The notes under the pieces: model-generated | Database searches by the model: none | Seen by the model: the letters and a program-made list of their open reading frames with translations, nothing else | What the model was told of the DNA's origin: nothing | Shown here: positions 2,732 through 45,780 of the stretch, piece by piece | Layout of the letters: each line of letters opens with the position of its first letter | Position numbering within the stretch: position 1 is the first letter of the stretch | Origin: a virus | Length of the DNA: 64,000 nucleotides | Direction: 5' to 3' (one strand) | Virus record (IMG/VR): IMGVR_UViG_3300016665_000824 | Coordinates: 1 to 64,000 of that record | Position numbers and translations under genes: made by a program

Positions 2732-3094
2732 ATGAGCAGATATTTCTCAAAAATAATGGAGAAAAAGATGACAGTATTAACCCAAGACGGGCTAGATCCC
2801 GCGGCCATTGATCTTGCTCCCATTGGGCAAGAACTGATCTCCGCCTTTGCGGAGAATCGCGATCCTATCCTTCCCGAAGGGTGGAAAGTCTTTAGGTCTC
2901 TCAATTCCATTGCCGCCCATTATAGGGACGGCAACCCCCAAGAATGGGAGTACTTTGTTCCCGTTGTCACTCTATGGATCGGCACAGGCGAAGCTAGAAA
3001 CACTGGCTTCGTTCGCCATCCGCTTGGGACGTGCGGGTATTGCGGATACCCACATGACAACTGGGGTGAATGCCCTAGCTGTGGAGGATCGTAA
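2732..3094 (+). CDS. hypothetical Cys-rich protein (C-terminal CxxC...CxxC)
   Basis: 120-codon ORF; alternative in-frame ATGs at about 2756 and 2768; C-terminus CGYCGY...CPSCG. Confidence 0.5.
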   Translation: MSRYFSKIMEKKMTVLTQDGLDPAAIDLAPIGQELISAFAENRDPILPEGWKVFRSLNSIAAHYRDGNPQEWEYFVPVVTLWIGTGEARNTGFVRHPLGTCGYCGYPHDNWGECPSCGGS

Positions 3095-3313
3095 ATGAAA
3101 TACTCCGTAATCTGCGAAGATTCACGCCTCACTGAAGCCAAGTTTGATACTCGTGCCGAAGCTGAGGCGTGGCTTCAATCCACCGTCTACCCTGTGGGTC
3201 GGTGGATTGAAGTGTCCGACATCTGCGGATGGTGCGGACAAGACAATATCTTGTCAACTGGCGAGAGTTGTCGAGAGTCAGATGGCTGCTGCGGATACTG
3301 CGGCGCTAACTGA
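3095..3313 (+). CDS. hypothetical Cys-rich small protein
   Basis: 72-codon ORF immediately after previous stop; CGWCG ... CCGYCG motifs. Confidence 0.5.
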   Translation: MKYSVICEDSRLTEAKFDTRAEAEAWLQSTVYPVGRWIEVSDICGWCGQDNILSTGESCRESDGCCGYCGAN

Positions 3314-3383
3314 CCCTCCTGATCGCTGCCGTATCCAAACAGCGATCGCTATGCTCCACAGATCTCAAACCTTCTCGCGGTGT

Positions 3384-3401
3384 GGAGTGAGTAACGCTAA
3401 T
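3384..3401. repeat. intergenic motif GGAGTGAGTAACGCTAAT (copy 2 of 2)
   Basis: see 2689-2706. Confidence 0.5.
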
Positions 3402-3452
3402 TGAGACAATAAAAATATTAGCCGCAAAAATAATGGCGGCAAGGAGAACGTT

Positions 3453-4394
3453 ATGGAATTCGTATTGTTTGACCCCCGCCCCGCATCCTTGGCTTCCGAA
3501 CAAGCCAGAATCCTTGTTCTTCGTGAGCAAGGCTACACCATTGTCGGTGTAGAGGTTACAGTCCCCGCGCTTGCGGGATTGTGTGACGTAAACATTGACC
3601 CCCAGCACGGGACTGGGGGCGACTCTTCAATGTCAGCGATCGCCTTGATTGCCAAGCACGGAATCGACCTTATCCCCAAAGGGGCGCAAAAGGTGGCATT
3701 TGCCACCGTGCGTCCTGACTTGGACAGCTTCGGAGGGATCGCCCTCCTGTGGTGGGAGCTACAAGCTCCTTATTCTGTGCAGCAGCATAGCTCCTCGGCT
3801 ATGCGATCGCGCATTCAAGCCATTCACCTGAGCGACACGTTCGCTCGCGGGGAATGGCAACCCCGTGAGTTAGGTACGGGCGAGGATAGTTACCTCGCAG
3901 CGATCGCTCGTTGTGTGAGCGATTTTAAACTGCCGATGCGCGATCGCGTTGAAGCCGTCCAGCGCTGGCTGGAAAATGGGTTGGAGCCTATTGGCTACCG
4001 ATCCGCATACGAATTGGAGCAGACAGAAATTTCGTCTGCTCTTAACATGGGAGAGATTACTGTAGATCTCTCCGAGCGATACGGCTACCCCGCCGAGGGA
4101 AAAGTCGTAGTAGTTCAATCCCGCCATCGGGCAGGGACAACTATGGGCTATACACAGGCTCCTGTTGTAGTAGCGCTCAATCCAGCGCTCGAATTTCGGG
4201 GAGTTATGACCCGCAAGTTTACCGTCTGTCAGTACCGCACTGGCTATGTAAATCTTCCTGCTGTATTGCAGGAACTTGCCTCCCTTGAGGCTGGCTGGGG
4301 CGGTTCGCCCACGATCATCGGCTCTCCCCAAGGGTCGGATTCTAATCTGCCACTGGAAACGGTGGTGGAAATTGTGACTAAGCACCTGCTATAG
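3453..4394 (+). CDS. hypothetical protein (313 aa)
   Basis: long ORF; ATG preceded by AAGGAG 6-7 nt upstream; no domain recognised. Confidence 0.7.
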   Translation: MEFVLFDPRPASLASEQARILVLREQGYTIVGVEVTVPALAGLCDVNIDPQHGTGGDSSMSAIALIAKHGIDLIPKGAQKVAFATVRPDLDSFGGIALLWWELQAPYSVQQHSSSAMRSRIQAIHLSDTFARGEWQPRELGTGEDSYLAAIARCVSDFKLPMRDRVEAVQRWLENGLEPIGYRSAYELEQTEISSALNMGEITVDLSERYGYPAEGKVVVVQSRHRAGTTMGYTQAPVVVALNPALEFRGVMTRKFTVCQYRTGYVNLPAVLQELASLEAGWGGSPTIIGSPQGSDSNLPLETVVEIVTKHLL

Positions 4395-6166: not shown

Positions 6167-6171
6167 TCAAT

Positions 6172-6204
6172 CGCCAAAGATCGCGGTCTAGGCAATCTTT
6201 GGCG
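6172..6204 (+). terminator. 10-bp stem hairpin after ORF 5954-6166
   Basis: CGCCAAAGAT ... ATCTTTGGCG; no U-tract. Confidence 0.3.
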
Positions 6205-6226
6205 CGTCCACATACCTGCAAAGAAT

Positions 6227-6478
6227 ATGAAGAACAGCATTAATTATTACATGAGTGAGGTCACAGCACCTCCTGAGATTGAAAGCTTAATGAGGGGCTT
6301 GGATCTCTATGATTTATCCGAGTTGATCCGATCCTTAGCCGAGGCGATCGCTACAAAGTATTTTGAGTTGCACAACAGAAACCTGTCTTACTCACCCGAA
6401 ATCGCTGACTGGCTTCGAGTTCAATCCTGCGACACATGGGTTCGGGTATTGCGCTGGCTAGCAATGGAGGTGATTTAG
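6227..6478 (+). CDS. hypothetical protein
   Basis: 83-codon ORF. Confidence 0.5.
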   Translation: MKNSINYYMSEVTAPPEIESLMRGLDLYDLSELIRSLAEAIATKYFELHNRNLSYSPEIADWLRVQSCDTWVRVLRWLAMEVI

Positions 6479-6790
6479 GTGAAGTTCACTCCATTGCTAC
6501 TGTCCCTAGCCCTGTTCCCTGCCCCCACATGGGCAACAAAAAACATCAATACCCCCATTGAAAGTCAGCCCTGTACGACTATCGCCATTCCAAACGGAGG
6601 AACAGCTTGTGTGCCTCCGAAGGTGTCGCAGCGATTCAATGCGGCTCCTCGGATTGTCAAGCTGGGAGACACGATTCGCACTTATTACGAGACAAATGCT
6701 CGCCGTATCTGTCATGGATGGGGTGGTACTTATATCATGCCTCGCCCTGACGAGGAGCGAGCTTGGGATTGTTTCAAGGTTCAAGATTAG
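6479..6790 (+). CDS. small secreted Cys-containing protein (predicted N-terminal signal peptide)
   Basis: GTG start with GGAGG upstream; N-terminus MKFTPLLLSLALFPAPTWA is signal-peptide-like; 4 Cys in mature part. Confidence 0.55.
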   Translation: MKFTPLLLSLALFPAPTWATKNINTPIESQPCTTIAIPNGGTACVPPKVSQRFNAAPRIVKLGDTIRTYYETNARRICHGWGGTYIMPRPDEERAWDCFKVQD

Positions 6791-9061: not shown

Positions 9062-9349
9062 ATGCTCCCTGAGTCAATCGCATTGATTTCAAGCTCAAAA
9101 GATCCCCTACTTTTGCAGTCCAACGTTTCTGTTCGTGAGGTTCATACCTCTCAAATATCGGTAGGAGATACTATTCTCTGCCCCGACGGGACTGTTAGGA
9201 CAGTATGTAATAGAAACATTCATCGCTGCCCTTCTATGGGGCGTTCAATATTTGGAGATACCTATCAACTCGGACATAAGCCTGTCCTTAGAGTCGTAAT
9301 CACTAGAACCATATACAGAGAGGGAAAACAATGCTTCGTAGAAGTTTGA
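9062..9349 (+). CDS. hypothetical protein
   Basis: 95-codon ORF. Confidence 0.5.
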   Translation: MLPESIALISSSKDPLLLQSNVSVREVHTSQISVGDTILCPDGTVRTVCNRNIHRCPSMGRSIFGDTYQLGHKPVLRVVITRTIYREGKQCFVEV

Positions 9350-9630
9350 TTGTCGCTTCATTATTCTTGGCAGAAAGCGCGATCGCCACTCCACTTCCAC
9401 TCGACCCACACCTCTGCTACATGCAGAAATCGAATGGGCAGGTAGTCAACCTCGGTCACTTGTGCGGCAAGGGAGAGATCGCTCTCCCAGTTATAGGAGT
9501 AGCGCCAACTACCGCGACAACATCTACTCGTGCCACCTCCTCTGGGAAGTGTACATTTAGTGGTGATCGCGATTCTCGTGGAAATTTATGTGGCGGACGC
9601 GCAAGTGTTCGTCGTAAAGGAGGTAGGTAA
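9331..9630 (+). CDS. small secreted Cys-containing protein (predicted signal peptide)
   Basis: N-terminus MLRRSLIVASLFLAESAIA is signal-peptide-like; 4 Cys; Thr/Ser-rich linker; basic C-terminus. Confidence 0.55.
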   Translation: MLRRSLIVASLFLAESAIATPLPLDPHLCYMQKSNGQVVNLGHLCGKGEIALPVIGVAPTTATTSTRATSSGKCTFSGDRDSRGNLCGGRASVRRKGGR

Positions 9631-9866: not shown

Positions 9867-10324
9867 CTACAAGATATTGCGTTACAAAACAAGTTCAATA
9901 TCCCGATGGCGATCGCGTTGTCGAGATATCTACAGGTACATTCGACTACGCTAATCCCGATTGCTTGAGCGACGGGATTAAGGAGTGCGAGACAGCTACT
10001 GAGGCTGTCGAGTATGCCATTGAGCTAGCACAAAAGTGGCAGGCTGAATGCGGTGAAGAAGTATTCATTGGCAAGGGCTATACAGGTGGCAACACCATGC
10101 CTTTCGATCCTTGGGAGCTTTGCGAAAACACTTATTCTCGCTTCCGATCATGGGCAAGAGAACGCGATGCGGACTTGCTGCGCTGCGATCATTGCGGTGA
10201 GGTCGTGAATGAGAAATATACCCTTCATCACTACCCAGACTTTGTTTTTTGCCGCGAATATTGCGCCGAAGAGTTTTTAGCTCAACAAGAAGAAGATCTA
10301 GAAAAGGAGTTTGAATATGCTTAA
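9863..10324 (+). CDS. hypothetical Cys-rich protein
   Basis: ATG 9863 in ATGA overlap with previous stop (track ORF 9755-10324); C-terminal CDHCG...FCREYC. Confidence 0.55.
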   Translation: MTTRYCVTKQVQYPDGDRVVEISTGTFDYANPDCLSDGIKECETATEAVEYAIELAQKWQAECGEEVFIGKGYTGGNTMPFDPWELCENTYSRFRSWARERDADLLRCDHCGEVVNEKYTLHHYPDFVFCREYCAEEFLAQQEEDLEKEFEYA

Positions 10325-10925
10325 GCAGTTAGAGTTTGTCCCGTTATCTGATTACCACGAGCCTATCGTGGCAAAGATTGAGATTATTCAAGACCAAACG
10401 CCATCTAGTCCCCGCAAATGGGATAACCTCGGCGAGATGGTTATTCGCAGAGCTATGGATGGTCACTTCTGTGGCGATCGCCTAGTCAACGATGAAGAAA
10501 TGAGTGAACTTATTAATCGTTGCCGAGTACAAGAACTTGTGTGGCGACCCATCTACGCATTGATTCACTCAGGAGTATGGCTATCGACCACCGAAAGCTT
10601 CAATGGGTATACCTGCAACTATGACACCTCGTTTGCAGGTGTCATCTATGTCGAGAACGACAAGATGATCGAAGAATACGGGGACTTATCTATTCGTAAT
10701 CGTGGCTTAGCGATCGCCTGCCTTGAATCCGAAGTTAAAACTTATCACCAATACCTCACGGGTGATGTCTATGGCTATCGAATGCTCGACCCCGATGGCG
10801 AGGAGGTTGATTCTTGCTGGGGATTTTATGGTTTGGATGTTAGCGAGAACGGAATGTTGGGCGCGATCGATTCCAAATATCACGATTTATTGAAGCAAGC
10901 TGCGGAGAATATTAAATATGTCTAG
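10311..10925 (+). CDS. hypothetical protein (204 aa)
   Basis: ORF. Confidence 0.6.
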   Translation: MNMLKQLEFVPLSDYHEPIVAKIEIIQDQTPSSPRKWDNLGEMVIRRAMDGHFCGDRLVNDEEMSELINRCRVQELVWRPIYALIHSGVWLSTTESFNGYTCNYDTSFAGVIYVENDKMIEEYGDLSIRNRGLAIACLESEVKTYHQYLTGDVYGYRMLDPDGEEVDSCWGFYGLDVSENGMLGAIDSKYHDLLKQAAENIKYV

Positions 10926-37321: not shown

Positions 37322-37351
37322 GGTAACAAGGACTTGAGTCCTTGTTACCTT
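37320..37351. terminator. bidirectional terminator hairpin (14-bp stem) between convergent moron and tape-measure genes
   Basis: AAGGTAACAAGGAC ttga GTCCTTGTTACCTT; both stop codons lie in or at the stem. Confidence 0.65.
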
Positions 37352-40300
37352 ACTCCGCTAGTAACACCCGCTACTCGTCTCAAGACATTATTAAGCGTGT
37401 CATTAACAGCCTTCTGGACATCATTGCCCACACCCGCCGCAGAACTAATGTTGCTTTGAGTATTGATAGCGATCGGGGCATTAACCGTAATATTTCCACT
37501 TGTACCCAGAGCCGCACCCGTAGGATTGCCCTGTTGCTGAGGAACAAGATCTTTACCGCCAAGACTACCGAAAGCCTGCGCCAATGCCTCCGCTCTTTGA
37601 AGTTGTCCTTCGTCAAGCAAGGCGATCGGCTTGTCGAGTTTCTTCTGGGCTTCCTCAAATGCCTTGTCGTCGATCTTCAATGTCACGGGGTTCTCGGAGA
37701 TTTGCTTCGACACACGGTTAAATTCCGCTTCCAGTCCTGCGGTTAAATCTTTAACCTTGAGATCTGGGGCAACCAACACCTTGGAGAAGCCTTCATCGAT
37801 TTGCTGAGTTAACTTGTCGAACGAAGACGCGATCGCCTGTTCTGGCTTTGCTTCCTCCGTAGGTTTGCCACCGTACTTAGCGTTAAGCTCCTCAAACGAG
37901 TTGGCTTGAGCAGGATACTTCTTGTTAAGCTCCTCAAAGCTGCCTGCCATGCCCTTGTCGGGATATTTCTTGGCTAACTCCTCAAAGCTAGTAGCGAACG
38001 GTGCGTTATCAGGCTTTGGTTCGGGTGCAGCCGTAAATACTCCGCCCTGCTCAACCTGCCCAAGCAATGCCGAGGTGGGGTTCTTAAACGAAGCACCGCG
38101 AACATTAACAGGTTGGCTTGCCGCAGCCACAGCATTACTTACATCCGTGGTAGTCAATGCTGCTGTACCCGTATTTTGAGTTAAGCGAGCAAGCTGCTCT
38201 CGTTGTAGGCGCTCTTGCAGCGCAGGATCTCTAGTTGCGCCAATAACATCGCCGATCGCCGTATTAGTTTCGCCTTGCTGTTTATTGGCAAGAGCTTGAC
38301 GATCATTCTTGTTGACAATCTCGTTAACCTTGGCTTCGTCGGCAATGAAACCCTTTTCTTGCTGCAATCCACCCAATTCAAGAAAGTTCTTCTCCTGTCC
38401 AAGCTTGGCTTGAGCAAGTTTAAGCTTCGCCTCTTCGGACTGGGGACGTAGTTTAACCTCCAACTCGGCGGCTTTGATAGCAGCATCCTGTGAGGCAATG
38501 TCCACCTTCTTCTTGGCGATCGCGATTTCATTTTCGACCTTCTTGCGTTCAAGCAATAGGTCACGCTTCTGGATTTCCCGCTCCAAGGACTCGGCTTCAA
38601 ACTTTTGCTGTTGCTTGAGGGAATTAAGCTTAAGAACGGCAAGTTTTTCCGCAAGAATCAGCTTTTTCTCTTCGAGTTCGAGATCGGCAAAGTTGCCCTG
38701 ACCACCTGCGGCACGGATGGCAGCTTGTTGGCGATCGTAGATCTTGTTGAGAGCAGCAAACTCTGACTCGCGTAATGCCACTGTAGACTGGGCAAGTTTA
38801 TTTGCCGACTCGGATAGGCGGCTTTGATTCTCAAGCCCCTTTTCTAGTGCGGTGAATAATAGTTTTTGACGTTCAAGCTTGAGGTTTTGCTGCTCAATCG
38901 TGACCGCATACTTTTGTGATTCCAAGACTAGGCGATCGCGCACTGCGGAAACTAATCCTTCAATCGCCGCGAGTTCGGCTTCAGCGAGCTGTTTGGATAG
39001 TTCAGCAACCTTGATTAGATTAGCGTTCTTAGTTTCCTTGCTAACACCAACGCCCTTCTTCTCAAGATCGGCGATCGCCTTCTGCTTTTGTTGTTCGAGT
39101 TGCAGCTCTAAAGTGATACTGCGTTTACGTTCGGCAGTTTCTTGAAGCTTAATTTCAGATTCAAGCTTAATTCCCGACTTGCGGAGTTGAGCTATCTGAG
39201 CAAGACGCTGAGTCTCGCCAACCTTTTCGGCGGCAAGGGTCTCCTTAATCTGTGCATCCAATCCCTTAACAAAGCGCTCGGAACGGGCTTTGGCTATTTT
39301 TGCCTCAGCGTCCTTCCGTTTGTTGTCGGCATCCTCTTCTAATCGCGCTTTCTGGGCGGCGGTAGCCTTAACTAGATCAAGCTCTTTTTTGTTTGCGTCA
39401 GCAATAGAGTTTTTCGCCAAGTTTTGACGTTCGGCATCTGGCTTTGCGATTGAGGAAAGTTGATCCCTCTTTGTCTGCAACGTCCGAAGTTCAGACTCTT
39501 TCTTGGCGATCGCGTCCTGTTCCGCCTTGATCTGTGCGGTGTACTCCGAGGAATTAAAAAATGGCGCGTCTTTTACGGTGTTGAATCGCTGTAATGTCTC
39601 CGCATTCCCAGCTTTCAGACTAGACAAGGCTTTTTCCCCATCTTCAATCTGCTTCGTAATTCCCTCTAGCTGTCCCTGAGTATCCTCTGACAACTTTAAG
39701 GTGCTATCCAAGGTTCCTTTCTGGCTCTGGAGGCTATTAAGTCTTGATTGCAACACAGCAAGCTCGTCCGTTACTTTCTTAACGTCCTCGGCAGCGTTAT
39801 CTCCCGCAACACCCGTACTTATAGACTCTTGGAGAGCCTTCTTCCTTGCCTCTGCATCTTTGATCTGTTGACTGGTATCGTCGATCTTTCCTTGCAAGAC
39901 AGGAGCTTGAGCTTCCCTGACCTGCCGTATCTTTGAAGGATCTCCAGTTGCAGCAGCTAACTGCGCTTCCGCCAACTCGCGATCGCGCTTAATCTGTTGT
40001 TTCTGCTCATTAGCGTTGGTCTCCAAGATCTGCTGTCTTGCTCTTAGAGCCTTTTGATCGGCTTCAGACTGGGCTTGAATCTTCTTCTCCTCTAATTGTC
40101 CAGAGAGGGCGATCGATTCAGACTCAGAGATTCGCCCCGTGGCGAGCAAAGCTTGAATCTGGGAAAGTTGAGCGTCATAAATAGCTATGCGGCGATCCGC
40201 CTCCTTTTTGTACGCGGCAGTAATCGCTTCTTGAGCCTTTATCTGTAAATCGCGATCGGCAGAGACATTCGTAGCTACTTTTTGAAACGCTCCCGCAACT

Positions 40301-43300
40301 TCGTCTGCACGGAGAATCCCTGCATCTTGAAGGGCGTTAGCCGTTTCAAGCAACTCGCCCAACTTCGCCTTAAATAGCGCAGGATCTCCCGCAGACTTGT
40401 TTAAAGCGTCAAGGGCTGCATTATATTTTGAAGTTGCCTGCTCGATCGCATTACCAATACGAGGAAGATCAATAGCCTGAATTTGCAGGTTTACCGACTT
40501 GTAGGATTCTTGAAGTTTTCTAAGGGCTTCAAGTTCTCGATCTCTTTCTGCGTCTAAACCTTCTACAGCTTGAACCTGATTAATGATTGCCTCGATATTG
40601 TTGTTTCTTTCGGCGATCTCCTTCTTCTTATTCTCGATCTGAATATCAAAACGCGCAGCACCATCTTTGTCGCTTAGCGCTTCCGCCTTGGACTTTTCCT
40701 GCTCTAATTTAATTAAATCCTCTTGGAGTTTCTTCTGAGCAGACAGTCCTATTCCTAGATCAACCCGCCGAGAAGCTGACTGATTTAAGACGTTTTTATT
40801 ATCTTGCAATCTTATTTGGACGGCTTTCTCTTCAAGATTTCCTGCGCGATCGCCTAGACCTAACTTGTCGGAAGCGCCAAACGTTACCGTTCTTAGCCCC
40901 TCTCTTGCCGCGTCACCTGTAAGAGCAAAACCTTCTGTAACGCGAGTACCAATATTGTCTCTCTCTTTTTTAACCTTCTCCCTCAACGCGTCTTCGGAGT
41001 TGGTTGGTTTGCTTTGTAATCCCCTCAACTCTTTGAGTTTTGCGAGCTGTTGATCATACAGCTTTAAAGTGGGGTCATCTTGGAGGATGCTCTTGTCTTG
41101 GATTGAGGCAACATATTTTTCGCGTTCTGAGGTTAGGTTTGCTAGCTCAGAAGCGGCATCCTTTCCTTGCGATTTGTTTAGGATCGCAACCCTTGCGTCA
41201 CTATCTTTGAGCGCATCGTTGAGTTTGTCTACATTGGCTGTAGCTGCTTTTGTTTCCTGATCGACGTAGCCAACCAAGGTTGTTATTGCGGCGAAAGCTG
41301 CGCTTAACAATAATGTAGGACCAATTTCTGCGGCGAGGGCGGCGAAGGATTTGCTGATACCTTTGACATTCTCGGAAATAAACGAGGTAGCGCCTACAGC
41401 ACCCTTTTTGAGGTTTGAATAAAGTCCACCGACACTAACGTTCGCGTTTTGAGTGAAATCAGCAAAGCTAGACTTAGCTCGCGAGCCAAAATCTTTGACA
41501 CCAGAAAGAGCATCTTGGAAACCTGTCTTTAACCCAGCACCTAAATTTTTGAGGCTTAAATCGGGGAGAGAAATAGACTTGACTTGATTGACAAACTTAT
41601 CTATAGCGATACGAGAATTAGCCAAAGAAGCGGGAATATTTAGCTCTCTAAAGAACTTATCGAGTCCCAGTCTCGCGTTTGCAAGAGAGGTAGGGACGTT
41701 GATCTGGGAAAATGCTTTTTCAACCCCGTTGCGGAGGTTTACCAGCGAGGCAGGAATGTTGATATTTGCAAAGGCGTTCCGAATGCTAGCTTTAGTATTC
41801 TCAATTTGCGCGGGGAGATTTGCAAAGATACCAGTTTTTTGACTCGAATCCTGACTGAACCTTCCCTTAATGTCAGATATAAAACTACCAATAGAGTCGC
41901 CCAAGGACTTCAAAGAAGTTTTTGTCTTTGTGGCGATCGCTCCAATATCTTCTGCGAACTGTTTTGTGAACGGGACGGGAATTGGATTGGCAATAATCTG
42001 ACTTCGGAGCGACTTGATTCTGTCGGTAGTCTCCTGATAACTTTTAAGAGCCGCCGCACGAGCTTCGGGGGTTAACGACAGATCTGTAGAGTCTTTTTGG
42101 CTCACGATCGCCTGCTGTTTTAGTCCAGAGACCTCTCGTTTAGCGGCGACAACCTGAGTAGGATTTAGAGTCGTTGACTGAACTGGCTTGCCCCCAAGTA
42201 TTTCTCGAACACTATCGTTTAGCTTCTTGATGCGCCCAAAGGTTTCGCCAATACTGGCTCCAGCACCGCTAATTCCCGTGTTAATTGTCTTAAATACATT
42301 GGAGATTGTGCCACCAAACAGCTTGGTAACAGCGATCGCGATTAGCAATCCGCCAACTACTTTTTGAAAAGGATTGGAGTTCTCGCCAAAAGTAAAGAAC
42401 GGCAATATCGTGTCTGCAACCACCTTAATTACTGGTGCTAATACCGACCCTACCGTATCCGCAAACTTACGAATAGCTGCGGTTACATCCTGAATGATTT
42501 TTTGTAGACCTTTGTTCTTCAGGATTAACTGATCGAAGAAGACAAAACCAACAAATGTTCCAGCACCCAACAAGGCTGTTGATACGGCAAAAGACCTTGC
42601 CGCAGCTCCTGCCGCTTTTAATGAATTAGAGAAGATGCTGTTTACTTTCTCGGTATTTGTAGCGACATCGGCAAACTTGCCCAAGCTCTTGGCTGCGTCC
42701 GCAATCAACGGGCTAAACGAGCCAAATAGTTGGGACTTACCAACAATGCCTGAGAAAGCTGTTAAGGCGATCGGCGCTGCCTTCGTAAATCCTTGCAGTG
42801 CGGTTCCTAGCGCAGGAAATGCTTGAGTAAGTCCAATCAGTTTTACCCCAAAGCCACCTAGTGTTGGCAAAGCGGCAGTTATAACTCCCGCGAATGGCGA
42901 GAACGCACCGAGAACTTTGCCCAACTCTTTTTGGACTAAGCCAGCAGCACCAGGGATCTTGTTTAGATTCTCCGCCAACAACAGGAATCCAGCAGACCCT
43001 CGACCGACAACCGAACTTAAATTAGCAAAAGTGTTGACAACCCCGTTAGTACGCTTGTCAAGCAGGAAGAGAACTTCTCCCAAACCTGGTACAAGATTAA
43101 ACATCAACGAGAAGCCTTTGTTTAATGCCCCGATCGCGCCCGAAAGAACTTTTGCGCCGACGGAGATGCCGATCCAAATCCCTCCAAGAGGACCTACAAC
43201 ACCTGCAATTTGTTCAAACACATTAATAGCTGGCTGAACAACAGCAAGAGTAAGGCTCATCGCATCGGAAAAAGCCTTTACTGCGCCAGCGAGAGACTTG

Positions 43301-45780
43301 AATAGGTATTCTGGAACCTGCCCAAAGATCTGGAAGAATGGCCCCGCGAGACTTTTTAGGGTCGCAATCACGTTCTTGAATACGTCAAACAGTATTCCTG
43401 CGAGACTCCCTACTTGAGCAGCGATCGCGTCTTTATTCTTTGAGAAATACTGGTAAAACCCGTCAAGTTCCGCTACTAAAGGTGCGAGGAATTTCTCCCC
43501 AGCGAGTCTGCCGATCTCATCAACTAGCTCTTGAATATTGCTAACAATCCCACCCACGGACTGAGCAGCTAGCTTGTTTCCAGACTTAAATGCTTCTAAT
43601 CGACCTAAAAGCTCTTTGACGAAGGTTCCTTGAGACTTCCACTTAGCCACCATCTCATTGTTGAGGTTAAGCGATTTGGCAAGAGCTGAGTTTTGGTCAA
43701 TAGTTCCCGAAGTTATACTAACAACCTCTTGACGGGCTTGATATAAAGGTATGCCAAGCGTTCCGAGTGCGGCGGCGAACGAGGTTGTAATATTAGCAGC
43801 GTCATTCAAGGACGCGCCAATGTTGCTTGCCTGCCCAGCAACGATCTGAAAAACCCCGACAAGATCTTTACTGGTTACGCCGACCAGCTCTAACGAGTCT
43901 TTACGAATTTTATCGATCGCCCCTTCAACCGCAGGGCCAACCGCCTTGATCGCTTGAGTTGGATCTGATACGCGATCGCCATTAACTACGATTCTATTGG
44001 TTGCCGCTAAGCTCGCCTGAGTAGAGAGTAGTTGCTCTTGGAGCCTGATGTTTTGCCCAATCAACAGATCGAAAGGGCCGTTTTGTACAAATCCTTGGAG
44101 TGCCTGCAATCCCAATCCCAAGAAAGCAAGTCTCTGAGATACTTCAAAGATCGCGTTGGTTGCCTTGCCAGCACCTTCGCTAATTAGATTGAATACTTCT
44201 AGTGGTTCCGTCGCCCCCGCCACTGGAGCAACCACTGCGGCGGCAATATCTACAGGTTCTTGCAGCTTCGGGGCTATCTCTTGAGTCTTTTGAAACCCCT
44301 TAACGATAACATCATCAACACTATCGATGACAGTACCGACTTCGGCAAGGATTGTTGATCTCAGTCCATCAACAAAATTCTTACCTGCGATCGCGCCAGT
44401 ATCTTTTAAAAGCGAACTAAATGTTCCGCCAAAAAACTCGTCAATCTTGGTTGCAAGTTTTTGCAGTGAGCCATCCCCGCTTCCGATAGAATCAATCGCC
44501 GCGCCCAACCCTCCGTCAATAGCATCGACAGCTTTTAGGGCTAAATTCCTGAGAGGCGCAAGGATGCTAGTATCTTCTACGCTAAACAAGCTATTGAGAG
44601 CCTGTCCAACGCCTCCCTTTTGAGTCTCTATTAAAGGGCGGAGGATGGCAAAAGCGGATCTTAAATCCTCTGGAATTGCTTTTTCTAGTCCATTAAATAA
44701 CTGTCCAGACAACGCATTTCCAAAATCTTGCAACTCATTAGAGGCAACAATCGACCCCAAATTTGCCACCCCGATCTTGTTGGCAATCAGTTTTGCTAGT
44801 GGTGGTAGTGGCAACTTATCTACAAGCTGAGGGATTCGCCCCGCTAGGCGGTTGATCAGCTCAGATACAGAGCCGCCTAACTGTTCGTCAAGAATTTTAA
44901 ATTGATCGGTCGCCTCAGATCTGCTGCCGACGATTGCCCTGCCGACCGATCCTCCTAAAGCGCTAGATAAGCGCCCTACAACTCTTTGTCCGTCCTCAAC
45001 GTTTGGCGCGATTGCGTTAACGGCAAAAGCTTTAGCAGCACCCGATACCGACCCACCAGCCAACTGCTTCGACACTTCCGACAGCAATCCAGTTTTTGCC
45101 GCAGTCCGAAATGAGTTGGCGACAATTGAGGTTAAATCCGCCCCGAAAGCTTGGTTAACAATACCTTTTAAAGCGTCGGGGAGTCCTCCCCCAACAACGC
45201 CCGAAATGAGTGAGTCGGCGATCGCGTTATCTAGCGTTCCAGTAAAAGCCTCAACTCCCACTCCAAGCTTGCGCTGAATTTCTTGATTTAGCTTTGAAGC
45301 CCTAACATTTGCTTCTAACGCTTTACCGAAACTGTTTGCAGAATCGCTAAGTATCTGCGTAATTCTCTTGCCGTTATCCGAAAATATTGCAGACTGAGCT
45401 TGCTCTGCCGACTGCTTAGATAAGAATCCTCCTCCGACATCTTTTCCTGCAGAGGTAATCCCCTTGATTACCTTTGAGAGCGGAGCTAGTTTTGAAACTG
45501 CACTGTCGGCGACATTCGAGATCTGTTCTAAAAATATTTTGCCCGACTGCGTATCTAGTACATCTCGAACCGACTGAATTGCGTCTCTCAGCCCTCCAAA
45601 CGTGCCAATCGCGGTTGCCCCTACCGTGCTGATCGTTCCGCCAAGGGCTTGTACAGATCCCTTTGTTACGTCCGCAACAACACCAACACTTTTTAGACCA
45701 GCAGCTATCTCCGAAACTTGTTTGCTTGCTTGATCTTTCGCCTGTATTAAGATCTCAACAATATTGGTTTGCGGAGCCAT
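37345..45780 (-). CDS. tape measure protein (2811 aa)
   Basis: giant ORF with Gly/Ala-rich hydrophobic N-terminal half and ~1000-aa coiled-coil (Q/E/K/A-rich) half, upstream of baseplate/fibre genes. Confidence 0.75.
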   Translation of the reverse strand: MAPQTNIVEILIQAKDQASKQVSEIAAGLKSVGVVADVTKGSVQALGGTISTVGATAIGTFGGLRDAIQSVRDVLDTQSGKIFLEQISNVADSAVSKLAPLSKVIKGITSAGKDVGGGFLSKQSAEQAQSAIFSDNGKRITQILSDSANSFGKALEANVRASKLNQEIQRKLGVGVEAFTGTLDNAIADSLISGVVGGGLPDALKGIVNQAFGADLTSIVANSFRTAAKTGLLSEVSKQLAGGSVSGAAKAFAVNAIAPNVEDGQRVVGRLSSALGGSVGRAIVGSRSEATDQFKILDEQLGGSVSELINRLAGRIPQLVDKLPLPPLAKLIANKIGVANLGSIVASNELQDFGNALSGQLFNGLEKAIPEDLRSAFAILRPLIETQKGGVGQALNSLFSVEDTSILAPLRNLALKAVDAIDGGLGAAIDSIGSGDGSLQKLATKIDEFFGGTFSSLLKDTGAIAGKNFVDGLRSTILAEVGTVIDSVDDVIVKGFQKTQEIAPKLQEPVDIAAAVVAPVAGATEPLEVFNLISEGAGKATNAIFEVSQRLAFLGLGLQALQGFVQNGPFDLLIGQNIRLQEQLLSTQASLAATNRIVVNGDRVSDPTQAIKAVGPAVEGAIDKIRKDSLELVGVTSKDLVGVFQIVAGQASNIGASLNDAANITTSFAAALGTLGIPLYQARQEVVSITSGTIDQNSALAKSLNLNNEMVAKWKSQGTFVKELLGRLEAFKSGNKLAAQSVGGIVSNIQELVDEIGRLAGEKFLAPLVAELDGFYQYFSKNKDAIAAQVGSLAGILFDVFKNVIATLKSLAGPFFQIFGQVPEYLFKSLAGAVKAFSDAMSLTLAVVQPAINVFEQIAGVVGPLGGIWIGISVGAKVLSGAIGALNKGFSLMFNLVPGLGEVLFLLDKRTNGVVNTFANLSSVVGRGSAGFLLLAENLNKIPGAAGLVQKELGKVLGAFSPFAGVITAALPTLGGFGVKLIGLTQAFPALGTALQGFTKAAPIALTAFSGIVGKSQLFGSFSPLIADAAKSLGKFADVATNTEKVNSIFSNSLKAAGAAARSFAVSTALLGAGTFVGFVFFDQLILKNKGLQKIIQDVTAAIRKFADTVGSVLAPVIKVVADTILPFFTFGENSNPFQKVVGGLLIAIAVTKLFGGTISNVFKTINTGISGAGASIGETFGRIKKLNDSVREILGGKPVQSTTLNPTQVVAAKREVSGLKQQAIVSQKDSTDLSLTPEARAAALKSYQETTDRIKSLRSQIIANPIPVPFTKQFAEDIGAIATKTKTSLKSLGDSIGSFISDIKGRFSQDSSQKTGIFANLPAQIENTKASIRNAFANINIPASLVNLRNGVEKAFSQINVPTSLANARLGLDKFFRELNIPASLANSRIAIDKFVNQVKSISLPDLSLKNLGAGLKTGFQDALSGVKDFGSRAKSSFADFTQNANVSVGGLYSNLKKGAVGATSFISENVKGISKSFAALAAEIGPTLLLSAAFAAITTLVGYVDQETKAATANVDKLNDALKDSDARVAILNKSQGKDAASELANLTSEREKYVASIQDKSILQDDPTLKLYDQQLAKLKELRGLQSKPTNSEDALREKVKKERDNIGTRVTEGFALTGDAAREGLRTVTFGASDKLGLGDRAGNLEEKAVQIRLQDNKNVLNQSASRRVDLGIGLSAQKKLQEDLIKLEQEKSKAEALSDKDGAARFDIQIENKKKEIAERNNNIEAIINQVQAVEGLDAERDRELEALRKLQESYKSVNLQIQAIDLPRIGNAIEQATSKYNAALDALNKSAGDPALFKAKLGELLETANALQDAGILRADEVAGAFQKVATNVSADRDLQIKAQEAITAAYKKEADRRIAIYDAQLSQIQALLATGRISESESIALSGQLEEKKIQAQSEADQKALRARQQILETNANEQKQQIKRDRELAEAQLAAATGDPSKIRQVREAQAPVLQGKIDDTSQQIKDAEARKKALQESISTGVAGDNAAEDVKKVTDELAVLQSRLNSLQSQKGTLDSTLKLSEDTQGQLEGITKQIEDGEKALSSLKAGNAETLQRFNTVKDAPFFNSSEYTAQIKAEQDAIAKKESELRTLQTKRDQLSSIAKPDAERQNLAKNSIADANKKELDLVKATAAQKARLEEDADNKRKDAEAKIAKARSERFVKGLDAQIKETLAAEKVGETQRLAQIAQLRKSGIKLESEIKLQETAERKRSITLELQLEQQKQKAIADLEKKGVGVSKETKNANLIKVAELSKQLAEAELAAIEGLVSAVRDRLVLESQKYAVTIEQQNLKLERQKLLFTALEKGLENQSRLSESANKLAQSTVALRESEFAALNKIYDRQQAAIRAAGGQGNFADLELEEKKLILAEKLAVLKLNSLKQQQKFEAESLEREIQKRDLLLERKKVENEIAIAKKKVDIASQDAAIKAAELEVKLRPQSEEAKLKLAQAKLGQEKNFLELGGLQQEKGFIADEAKVNEIVNKNDRQALANKQQGETNTAIGDVIGATRDPALQERLQREQLARLTQNTGTAALTTTDVSNAVAAASQPVNVRGASFKNPTSALLGQVEQGGVFTAAPEPKPDNAPFATSFEELAKKYPDKGMAGSFEELNKKYPAQANSFEELNAKYGGKPTEEAKPEQAIASSFDKLTQQIDEGFSKVLVAPDLKVKDLTAGLEAEFNRVSKQISENPVTLKIDDKAFEEAQKKLDKPIALLDEGQLQRAEALAQAFGSLGGKDLVPQQQGNPTGAALGTSGNITVNAPIAINTQSNISSAAGVGNDVQKAVNDTLNNVLRRVAGVTSGVR
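37840..37995 (-). repeat. three tandem ~45-nt repeats encoding SFEEL-x-KKYP inside the tape measure gene
   Basis: GCTCCTCAAA recurs three times on + strand; protein repeats SFEELAKKYP / SFEELNKKYP / SFEELNAKYG. Confidence 0.6.

Follow-up and report, generated by a model that had tools for sequence, protein, structure and literature searches.

Phage-encoded exported proteins alter the surface of the cell that a phage occupies, and the outcomes include exclusion of rivals, timing of lysis and lysogenic conversion. To our knowledge, almost nothing has been described of such exported proteins for the phages of freshwater or filamentous cyanobacteria, which shape harmful blooms. Phage morons for envelope proteins include those for Bor of lambda, Llp of T5 and Cor of phi80, all three of which are lipoproteins. 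T5 Llp has been described as a moron-encoded envelope protein (PMC9586334). Phage T4 makes Spackle (gp61.3), an early, periplasmic protein of 75 amino acids (aa) with one disulfide, which blocks the tail lysozyme of a superinfecting phage (PMC7677548). The periplasmic domain of RcsF and the DUF1471/YhcN domains (YahO, SrfN, YdgH/SssB) form one alpha+beta fold group with a sheet order of 2-4-3-1 and one helix (PMC4092069). Here, we analysed an open reading frame (ORF) for a 103-aa protein at 6479..6790 (+) of a 64,000-nucleotide (nt) stretch of viral DNA, positions 1 to 64,000 of IMG/VR record IMGVR_UViG_3300016665_000824; this whole stretch is called the window below. The ORF is a genuine gene, conserved among phages of cyanobacteria; its product very probably leaves the cytoplasm through the Sec pathway, loses its signal peptide after Ala19 and acquires disulfide bonds.

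A search of 5.8 billion proteins returned 15 homologues, one of them 99% identical and located on a 134-kb contig and the others 51–79% identical, and an exhaustive profile search of 1.84 billion representatives returned 20 proteins at E<0.001. The family is thus real but rare, and it is unannotated. Nine copies from the fetched loci were codon-aligned, and the ratio of nonsynonymous to synonymous substitution rates (dN/dS) was evaluated only for pairs with unsaturated dS; it was 0.07–0.24 in every such pair. Purifying selection therefore acts on the sense frame, and the overlapping antisense ORF of 92 aa is an artefact. The gene begins with GTG, read as Met, directly after the TAG of the upstream ORF 6227..6478. 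We consider this start correctly assigned because two syntenic relatives, L009 and L015, have ATG at the same position and because the GGAGGTGAT block is unchanged across the window, L009 and L015. The Shine-Dalgarno (SD) sequence inside the end of the upstream gene and the start codon abutting its stop codon suggest that the two genes are translationally coupled.

The surroundings identify the carrier. About 75 small genes occupy the + strand from 1 to 24.9 kb, followed on the - strand by a structural module, among whose products are a major capsid protein (PF09950) and a head maturation protease. The capsid protein and an 1108-aa protein of the structural module are closest to siphoviral cyanophages of filamentous cyanobacteria, with 34–35% aa identity to Aphanizomenon phage vB_AphaS-CL131, 32% to Planktothrix phage PaV-LD and 29% to Nodularia phages. 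We counted 135 copies of the HIP1 palindrome (GCGATCGC) in the window, about one per 474 bp, where 1.2 would be expected, and the palindrome was equally abundant in all 12 fetched loci in which it was counted. This oligonucleotide signature, typical of the host, is thus very dense in these phage genomes. Cyanobacterial genomes characteristically contain HIP1 in great excess (PMC5861425, PMC4390886). The HIP1 density, the capsid and protease module and the matches to cultured cyanosiphoviruses together uphold the preliminary description of this DNA, which had called it phage-encoded and had linked it to cyanobacteria; the host is probably a filamentous cyanobacterium. Its placement of the gene in the early region is likewise a reasonable reading of the gene layout alone, namely the array of small same-strand genes of about 25 kb opposite the structural module. 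Where it had gone astray was in pointing to cyanobacterial prophages as the place to find homologues. Among 185,579 species-representative genomes we found no relative, including none as a prophage gene, so we no longer considered a homologue in a prophage or a host, and the relatives turned out to lie on metagenomic phage contigs. Cultured phages gave no match by DNA or protein, and plasmids gave no match to the gene. A metagenome scan contributed only six short loci. Genomes were also scanned with the DnaB of the temperate carrier phages as a way to the host, and this recovered only distant Firmicutes helicases.

Export was judged with a home-made von Heijne-style rule, which demands a positively charged n-region, an uncharged hydrophobic h-region of about 7–15 residues and small residues at -3 and -1. 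The precursor opens with MKFTPLLLSLALFPAPTWA, and the predicted signal-peptidase-I cut after TWA19 is followed by TKNINTPIESQPC, with Thr20 as the first residue of the mature protein. Among 101 likely genes, this protein was the only one to pass the rule; because 4 of 319 presumably non-coding ORFs pass as well (about 1%), passing in one ORF is not beyond chance. Across the family, the h-region is only 29% identical between copies and is always hydrophobic (mean Kyte-Doolittle 1.95–2.92) with no internal charge, and the c-region is 60% identical with A-x-A kept; identity rises to 65% and 77% in the two mature modules. Such family-wide drift with hydrophobicity and A-x-A retained is, at the level of sequence, the classic signature of a cleaved Sec signal peptide. 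The rule was passed by 20 of the 32 family members, and at least three of those that failed (P0009, P0022 and P0025) have an N-terminal extension ahead of the hydrophobic segment, which suggests mis-called starts. The mature protein is predicted to have about 84 aa, a mass of 9.4 kDa and a mildly basic pI of 8.8.

The lipobox L-[AS]-[GA]-C is absent, the first cysteine being residue 32, which lies 13 residues past the predicted cleavage site, and the non-conserved cysteine in the 'ALLCPNP' of some relatives has Leu at -1; with no cysteine before residue 32, the lipoprotein reading was rejected. The twin-arginine motif S/T-R-R-x-F-L-K is also absent, and a Tat substrate was rejected given the lack of RR in the n-region, which is MK here and MKK or MKN in relatives. 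It is also conceivable that the hydrophobic N-terminus stays uncleaved as a signal anchor, keeping the protein on the cytoplasmic or the thylakoid membrane, from which its Cys domains would point outward. Such an anchor would fit several functions, and some members indeed have no clear positive n-region or good -3/-1 pair in the heuristic. We nevertheless consider it unlikely, since an h-region of only 11–12 residues is too short for a stable span, a helix-breaking P-x-P and the conserved A-x-A follow it, and in family members lacking the hairpin module the first residue of the C-module stands directly after A-x-A, as would be expected for a processing site.

The predicted cleaved product comprises two modules (Table 1). 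We modelled both the precursor and the mature sequence with AlphaFold2 using the family alignment and obtained the same topology for the two. The signal peptide and the lead-in were modelled as disordered, the signal peptide with a predicted local distance difference test (pLDDT) score <50, as expected. The strands of the hairpin (33–36 and 42–45) reached a pLDDT of about 70–80, and the linker at residues 50–54 had low confidence (pLDDT <50). The beta-alpha-beta-beta domain was modelled at a pLDDT of 93–97, with a strand at 58–67, a helix at 71–81 and strands at 85–88 and 95–102. Residues invariant in the family include P31, C32, P38, C44, P47, Q51 and R52, the KLGxxIRT strand, C78, W81-G82-G83 and the C-terminal AWDCFK. 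C78 lies in the helix of the C-module and C98 in its last strand. Each module carries exactly two cysteines, whether it stands alone or is recombined, which argues for the pairs C32-C44 and C78-C98 and hence for an oxidising compartment; the two disulfides are presumed from this count per module. The preliminary description had read this stretch as a 103-aa ORF whose N-terminus has the shape of a Sec signal peptide and whose mature part has four cysteines. Coordinates, length and cysteine count were correct, C32, C44, C78 and C98 all lie in the mature part and are invariant in the family, the signal-peptide shape is borne out by the heuristic and by the hydrophobicity and A-x-A kept in divergent homologues, and the coding status held under comparative analysis.

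No model in Pfam, PHROG, NCBIfam or PADLOC matches the protein or its variants, and no Pfam family, DUF1471/YhcN (BhsA, YahO, SrfN and YdgH) included, was reached at E<=1. A sequence-profile search of the Protein Data Bank (PDB) returned nothing significant (best E 0.3, ribosomal protein eL8), and Foldseek against the PDB and BFVD returned nothing at E<0.001. The C-module weakly resembles the periplasmic domains of RcsF and DUF1471, and its structural neighbours are periplasmic envelope proteins; RcsF is a lipoprotein, whereas the 103-aa protein lacks a lipobox. The comparison with T4 Spackle is of a different kind. Both are phage genes of the early region without a partner gene, with small mature products (75 aa and about 84 aa) that have a cleaved N-terminal signal and disulfide stabilisation, features predicted from the sequence in our case. 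Spackle, however, is an alpha-helical bundle with one disulfide, whereas the protein described here is predicted to combine a hairpin with a beta-alpha-beta-beta domain and has two presumed disulfides, and we found no match between them in sequence or fold. The likeness to Spackle would therefore be an analogy of working mode, not family membership.

The family occurs in three architectures. The window encodes a signal peptide, the hairpin module and the C-domain. In the C-only form (P0020, P0021 and P0024), the signal peptide is joined to the C-domain, whose opening Q-R follows directly after the A-x-A site. The third architecture (P0025, P0028, P0031, P0033 and P0034) joins the signal peptide and hairpin module to a different C-terminus, which is a second two-Cys hairpin (CxWVTVRxxGK...VCxPPR). 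Four of these five proteins continue into a Pro/Lys-rich tail that terminates in G-Y; P0033 is shorter and has no tail. P0031, used as a query, recovered only itself. As a separate observation, members with differing C-modules (P0002 at L009 4738-5061, P0025, P0028, P0031 and P0034) end in G-x-Y-COOH (GWY, GGY, PGY or RGY), which may be a shared C-terminal recognition tag; the copy in the window lacks this motif.

Recombination of the modules is visible at orthologous loci. In L015, a sister of the phage in the window, three upstream and two downstream genes are 56–83% identical at the protein level, and DNA homology covers the signal peptide and the hairpin module up to window position 6616. 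In place of the DNA between window 6616 and 7264, L015 has the alternative C-terminus and a different downstream gene, and the swap of the C-module is in frame. L009, another sister, keeps the C-domain of the window with different downstream genes. L013 and L014 have the C-only form at the locus where L003 has the full-length form, with the same 57-aa gene after it. As these alignments read, the modules are independently exchangeable, with the recombination break at the module junction. A constant N-terminal part with alternative C-modules and a break at the junction (codon 46 versus L015) recalls polymorphic toxins, as does the replacement of the adjacent downstream gene of L015 along with the C-terminus. 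Unlike polymorphic toxins, the modules here are only 30–55 aa long without toxin-domain matches, and no downstream gene co-varies with the C-module, the followers being unrelated in the window, L009, L003, L001, L007 and L006. With no fixed link between the C-module and a downstream partner, a toxin/immunity pair is not supported, and we rejected it on this ground.

Table 1. Positions in the window of the 103-aa gene, its translation signal, its protein modules and the recombination breakpoint.
Feature	Position	Strand	Basis or remark
Shine-Dalgarno sequence GGAGG	6467..6471	+	7 nt before GTG, within the 3' end of the upstream gene
Precursor of 103 aa, coding sequence with its stop codon	6479..6790	+	15 homologues, dN/dS 0.07–0.24
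Predicted signal peptide, aa 1–19 (n-region MK, h-region FTPLLLSLALF, c-region PAPTWA)	6479..6535	+	Heuristic test; hydrophobicity and A-x-A conserved
N-module, aa 20–50 (Pro/Thr-rich lead-in, then predicted beta-hairpin closed by C32/C44)	6536..6628	+	Consensus TLTPPITSEPC-x11-C-xPK
Recombination breakpoint, about codon 46	6616..6617	+	blastn of window versus L015: DNA homology stops here and resumes at window 7264
C-module, aa 51–103 (predicted beta-alpha-beta-beta domain)	6629..6787	+	Consensus QRxNxAPRxVKLGDTIRT...AxRxCHGWGG...AWDCFK

Outside the sister phages, the 103-aa gene is the only gene common to the window and seven other phage contexts. One type of carrier (L003 and L010) has RecT, DnaB and a Mu-like portal protein, and the gene lies there in a rightward operon opposite an HTH repressor. 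In the other type, a siphovirus (L001 and L007), the tail-tube and tape-measure genes flank an accessory island that contains it together with Bro-N/ANT and HTH genes. A bidirectional terminator with a 20-bp stem directly follows the stop codon in these two carriers, and in L003 a terminator follows the gene and the 57-aa gene; some other carriers have a convergent gene downstream of the homologue. The convergent gene of L007 (10365-10748, -) encodes a membrane-anchored BLIP-domain protein (PF07467, phrog_6148 'moron') and shares with the homologue a perfect bidirectional terminator at 10322-10365, so that the two genes, by their predicted products, form a small island of envelope-directed accessory genes. 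On the sequence comparisons made here, the gene appears to move as a single-gene cassette among unrelated HIP1-rich cyanophages. In this it resembles the morons, being a single accessory gene that moves between unrelated phages and has its own strong terminator and envelope-directed neighbours in L001 and L007. It differs from Bor, Llp and Cor in that these are lipoproteins whereas the 103-aa protein is predicted to be soluble, and in that the gene is operon-coupled in the window, where neither a promoter nor a terminator rose above background near it.

Two observations on carriers stand apart from these comparisons. The contig of L006 also encodes, at 3104-3964 (+), a protein with ART/ADP-ribosylating exotoxin domains (PF01129, PF03496). 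One homologue lies on a 60-kb HIP1-rich phage contig (L001, L021; JACCDR012237212.1) within the NCBI assembly GCA_013565735.1, whose contig numbers run into the millions, so that this contig is probably a cyanobacterial phage or prophage that was co-sequenced with another organism or a community.

What the protein does can be proposed more tentatively than where it goes. The Sec pathway would export the precursor, and signal peptidase I would cut after Thr-Trp-Ala19, so that a soluble product of about 84 aa would reach the periplasm of the host, a probably filamentous cyanobacterium. The mature protein would consist of a disulfide-closed hairpin (C32-C44), a flexible linker and a compact beta-alpha-beta-beta domain (C78-C98), and would act alone, without a fixed partner gene. 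Its target might be some envelope component or part of an incoming phage, and the infected or lysogenic cell would then be altered at its surface; the likeliest outcome would be superinfection exclusion or envelope protection, analogous to T4 Spackle. We infer this function from the stand-alone mobility, the early or accessory placement, the envelope-directed neighbours and the arms-race-like module swapping. On balance, a periplasmic envelope-binding accessory factor, for example for superinfection exclusion, analogous but unrelated to Spackle, is the function that we favour, though with reserve, and a sizeable probability remains for some other function. Several points weigh against it. Support for export comes from a home-made heuristic rule, and in cyanobacteria a Sec signal peptide may also lead a protein into the thylakoid lumen. 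Many envelope-acting exclusion proteins are lipoproteins or membrane proteins, and the 103-aa protein is neither. Moreover, the copy in the window belongs, by translational coupling, to a long operon and is not a classic moron with its own signals.

The thylakoid lumen is a rival destination, where the protein might, during infection, attach to some lumenal part of the photosynthetic apparatus or its repair machinery. The HIP1-rich window indicates a cyanobacterial host and the relatives are cyanophages; in cyanobacteria, the signal peptides of Sec substrates bound for the periplasm resemble those of substrates bound for the lumen, plastocyanin is an example of a lumenal protein encoded by cyanophages, and the lumen supports disulfide formation. 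We judge lumenal targeting improbable all the same: the invariant residues contain no metal-binding or cofactor motif, the Pfam, PDB-profile and family-library searches found no similarity to any photosynthesis protein, the structural neighbours are proteins of the periplasmic envelope, and module swapping and cassette mobility are more in keeping with an arms race at the surface than with a photosynthetic target that is conserved.

A regulator of lysis timing, either antiholin-like in the periplasm as T4 RI or an inhibitor of a host or phage peptidoglycan hydrolase, would share the small size, the export and the origin on the early side of the genome that are predicted for the 103-aa protein. 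T4 RI itself, an early protein of about 97 aa with an N-terminal export signal and periplasmic action, provides a precedent. We give this function a low probability, given that recognisable lysis genes never adjoin the gene in the contexts read, that the structural and replication modules of the carriers are unrelated, so that different holins are expected, and that no holin partner co-varies with it.

It is doubtful, too, that the protein is released past the outer membrane as a toxin, bacteriocin or effector acting on competing bacteria or on a eukaryotic partner of a symbiotic cyanobacterium. The preliminary description had mentioned a toxin-like function among the conceivable roles of a secreted, four-cysteine protein, beside receptor masking and superinfection exclusion. 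Cys-stabilised alpha-beta defensins have at least three disulfides and the CxxxC and CxC motifs, whereas the 103-aa protein has only two presumed disulfides and neither motif. No immunity-like gene is conserved downstream (L009 has the same C-module with different followers), no dedicated secretion system lies nearby, and a Sec signal alone ends at the periplasm in diderm bacteria. The weakest alternative, that the ORF is open by chance and is not a gene, could appeal to its shortness, its GTG start, the roughly 1% of non-coding ORFs that satisfy the signal-peptide heuristic and the overlapping antisense ORF, yet we rejected this non-coding reading and give it practically no chance against homologues at 51–99% identity, the dN/dS of the sense frame, a start and SD conserved in relatives and a confidently folded C-module.

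An extension of the envelope-binding proposal concerns filaments. A continuous periplasm along heterocyst-forming filaments has been proposed, as stated in a passage of PMC4453526 that cites Mariscal et al. 2007. A soluble periplasmic protein might then diffuse to uninfected neighbour cells and act ahead of infection, although we regard this as highly unlikely. If it were true, competing phages could be excluded from the whole filament or the neighbours could be conditioned, and a phage factor would be acting between cells of a multicellular bacterium.

The kind of protein described here, a small exported accessory protein of phages, is well known; the family is unannotated, lacks a cultured representative and offers a natural series of module swaps. 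Its existence would not surprise a specialist, and no long-standing question hinges on it. It does provide a compact, testable candidate of 9 kDa, in which one domain is predicted with confidence and the module boundaries are clear, and the natural swap variants could be used to map which module bears specificity. If the protein is an exclusion factor, its fold would be a novel one for this role, and it would offer a way into studying how phages compete with one another in blooms of cyanobacteria; if it is merely another unassignable accessory protein, little is lost, as such orphan genes are very common in phage genomes.

Several other features of the window were recorded. One HIP1 copy lies at 6344-6351, just upstream of the 103-aa gene. 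Two genes upstream, a hairpin at 6172-6204 with a 13-bp stem (seven G-C pairs) occupies the intergenic gap 6167-6226 between the 70-aa and 83-aa genes and has a terminator-like score on the - strand only. A second export-like protein of 99 aa is encoded at 9331-9630 (+), with the N-terminus MLRRSLIVASLFLAESAIA followed by TPLPL, four cysteines and a basic C-terminal tail. It failed the signal-peptide heuristic because of a Glu in the c-region, it has no significant family match in Pfam, PHROGs, NCBIfam or PADLOC, and it is kept in the sister L009 at 66% identity. Three consecutive small ORFs at 2304-2621, 2732-3094 and 3095-3313 (+) end in a Cys-rich CxxC...CxxC pattern, for example CGYCGYPHDNWGECPSCGG and CGWCG...CCGYCGAN, and look like a small paralogous set of zinc-ribbon proteins. 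In the structural module, a 2811-aa ORF at 37345-45780 (-), which has no Pfam match at E<=0.01, presumably encodes a giant tail or tape-measure-type protein.
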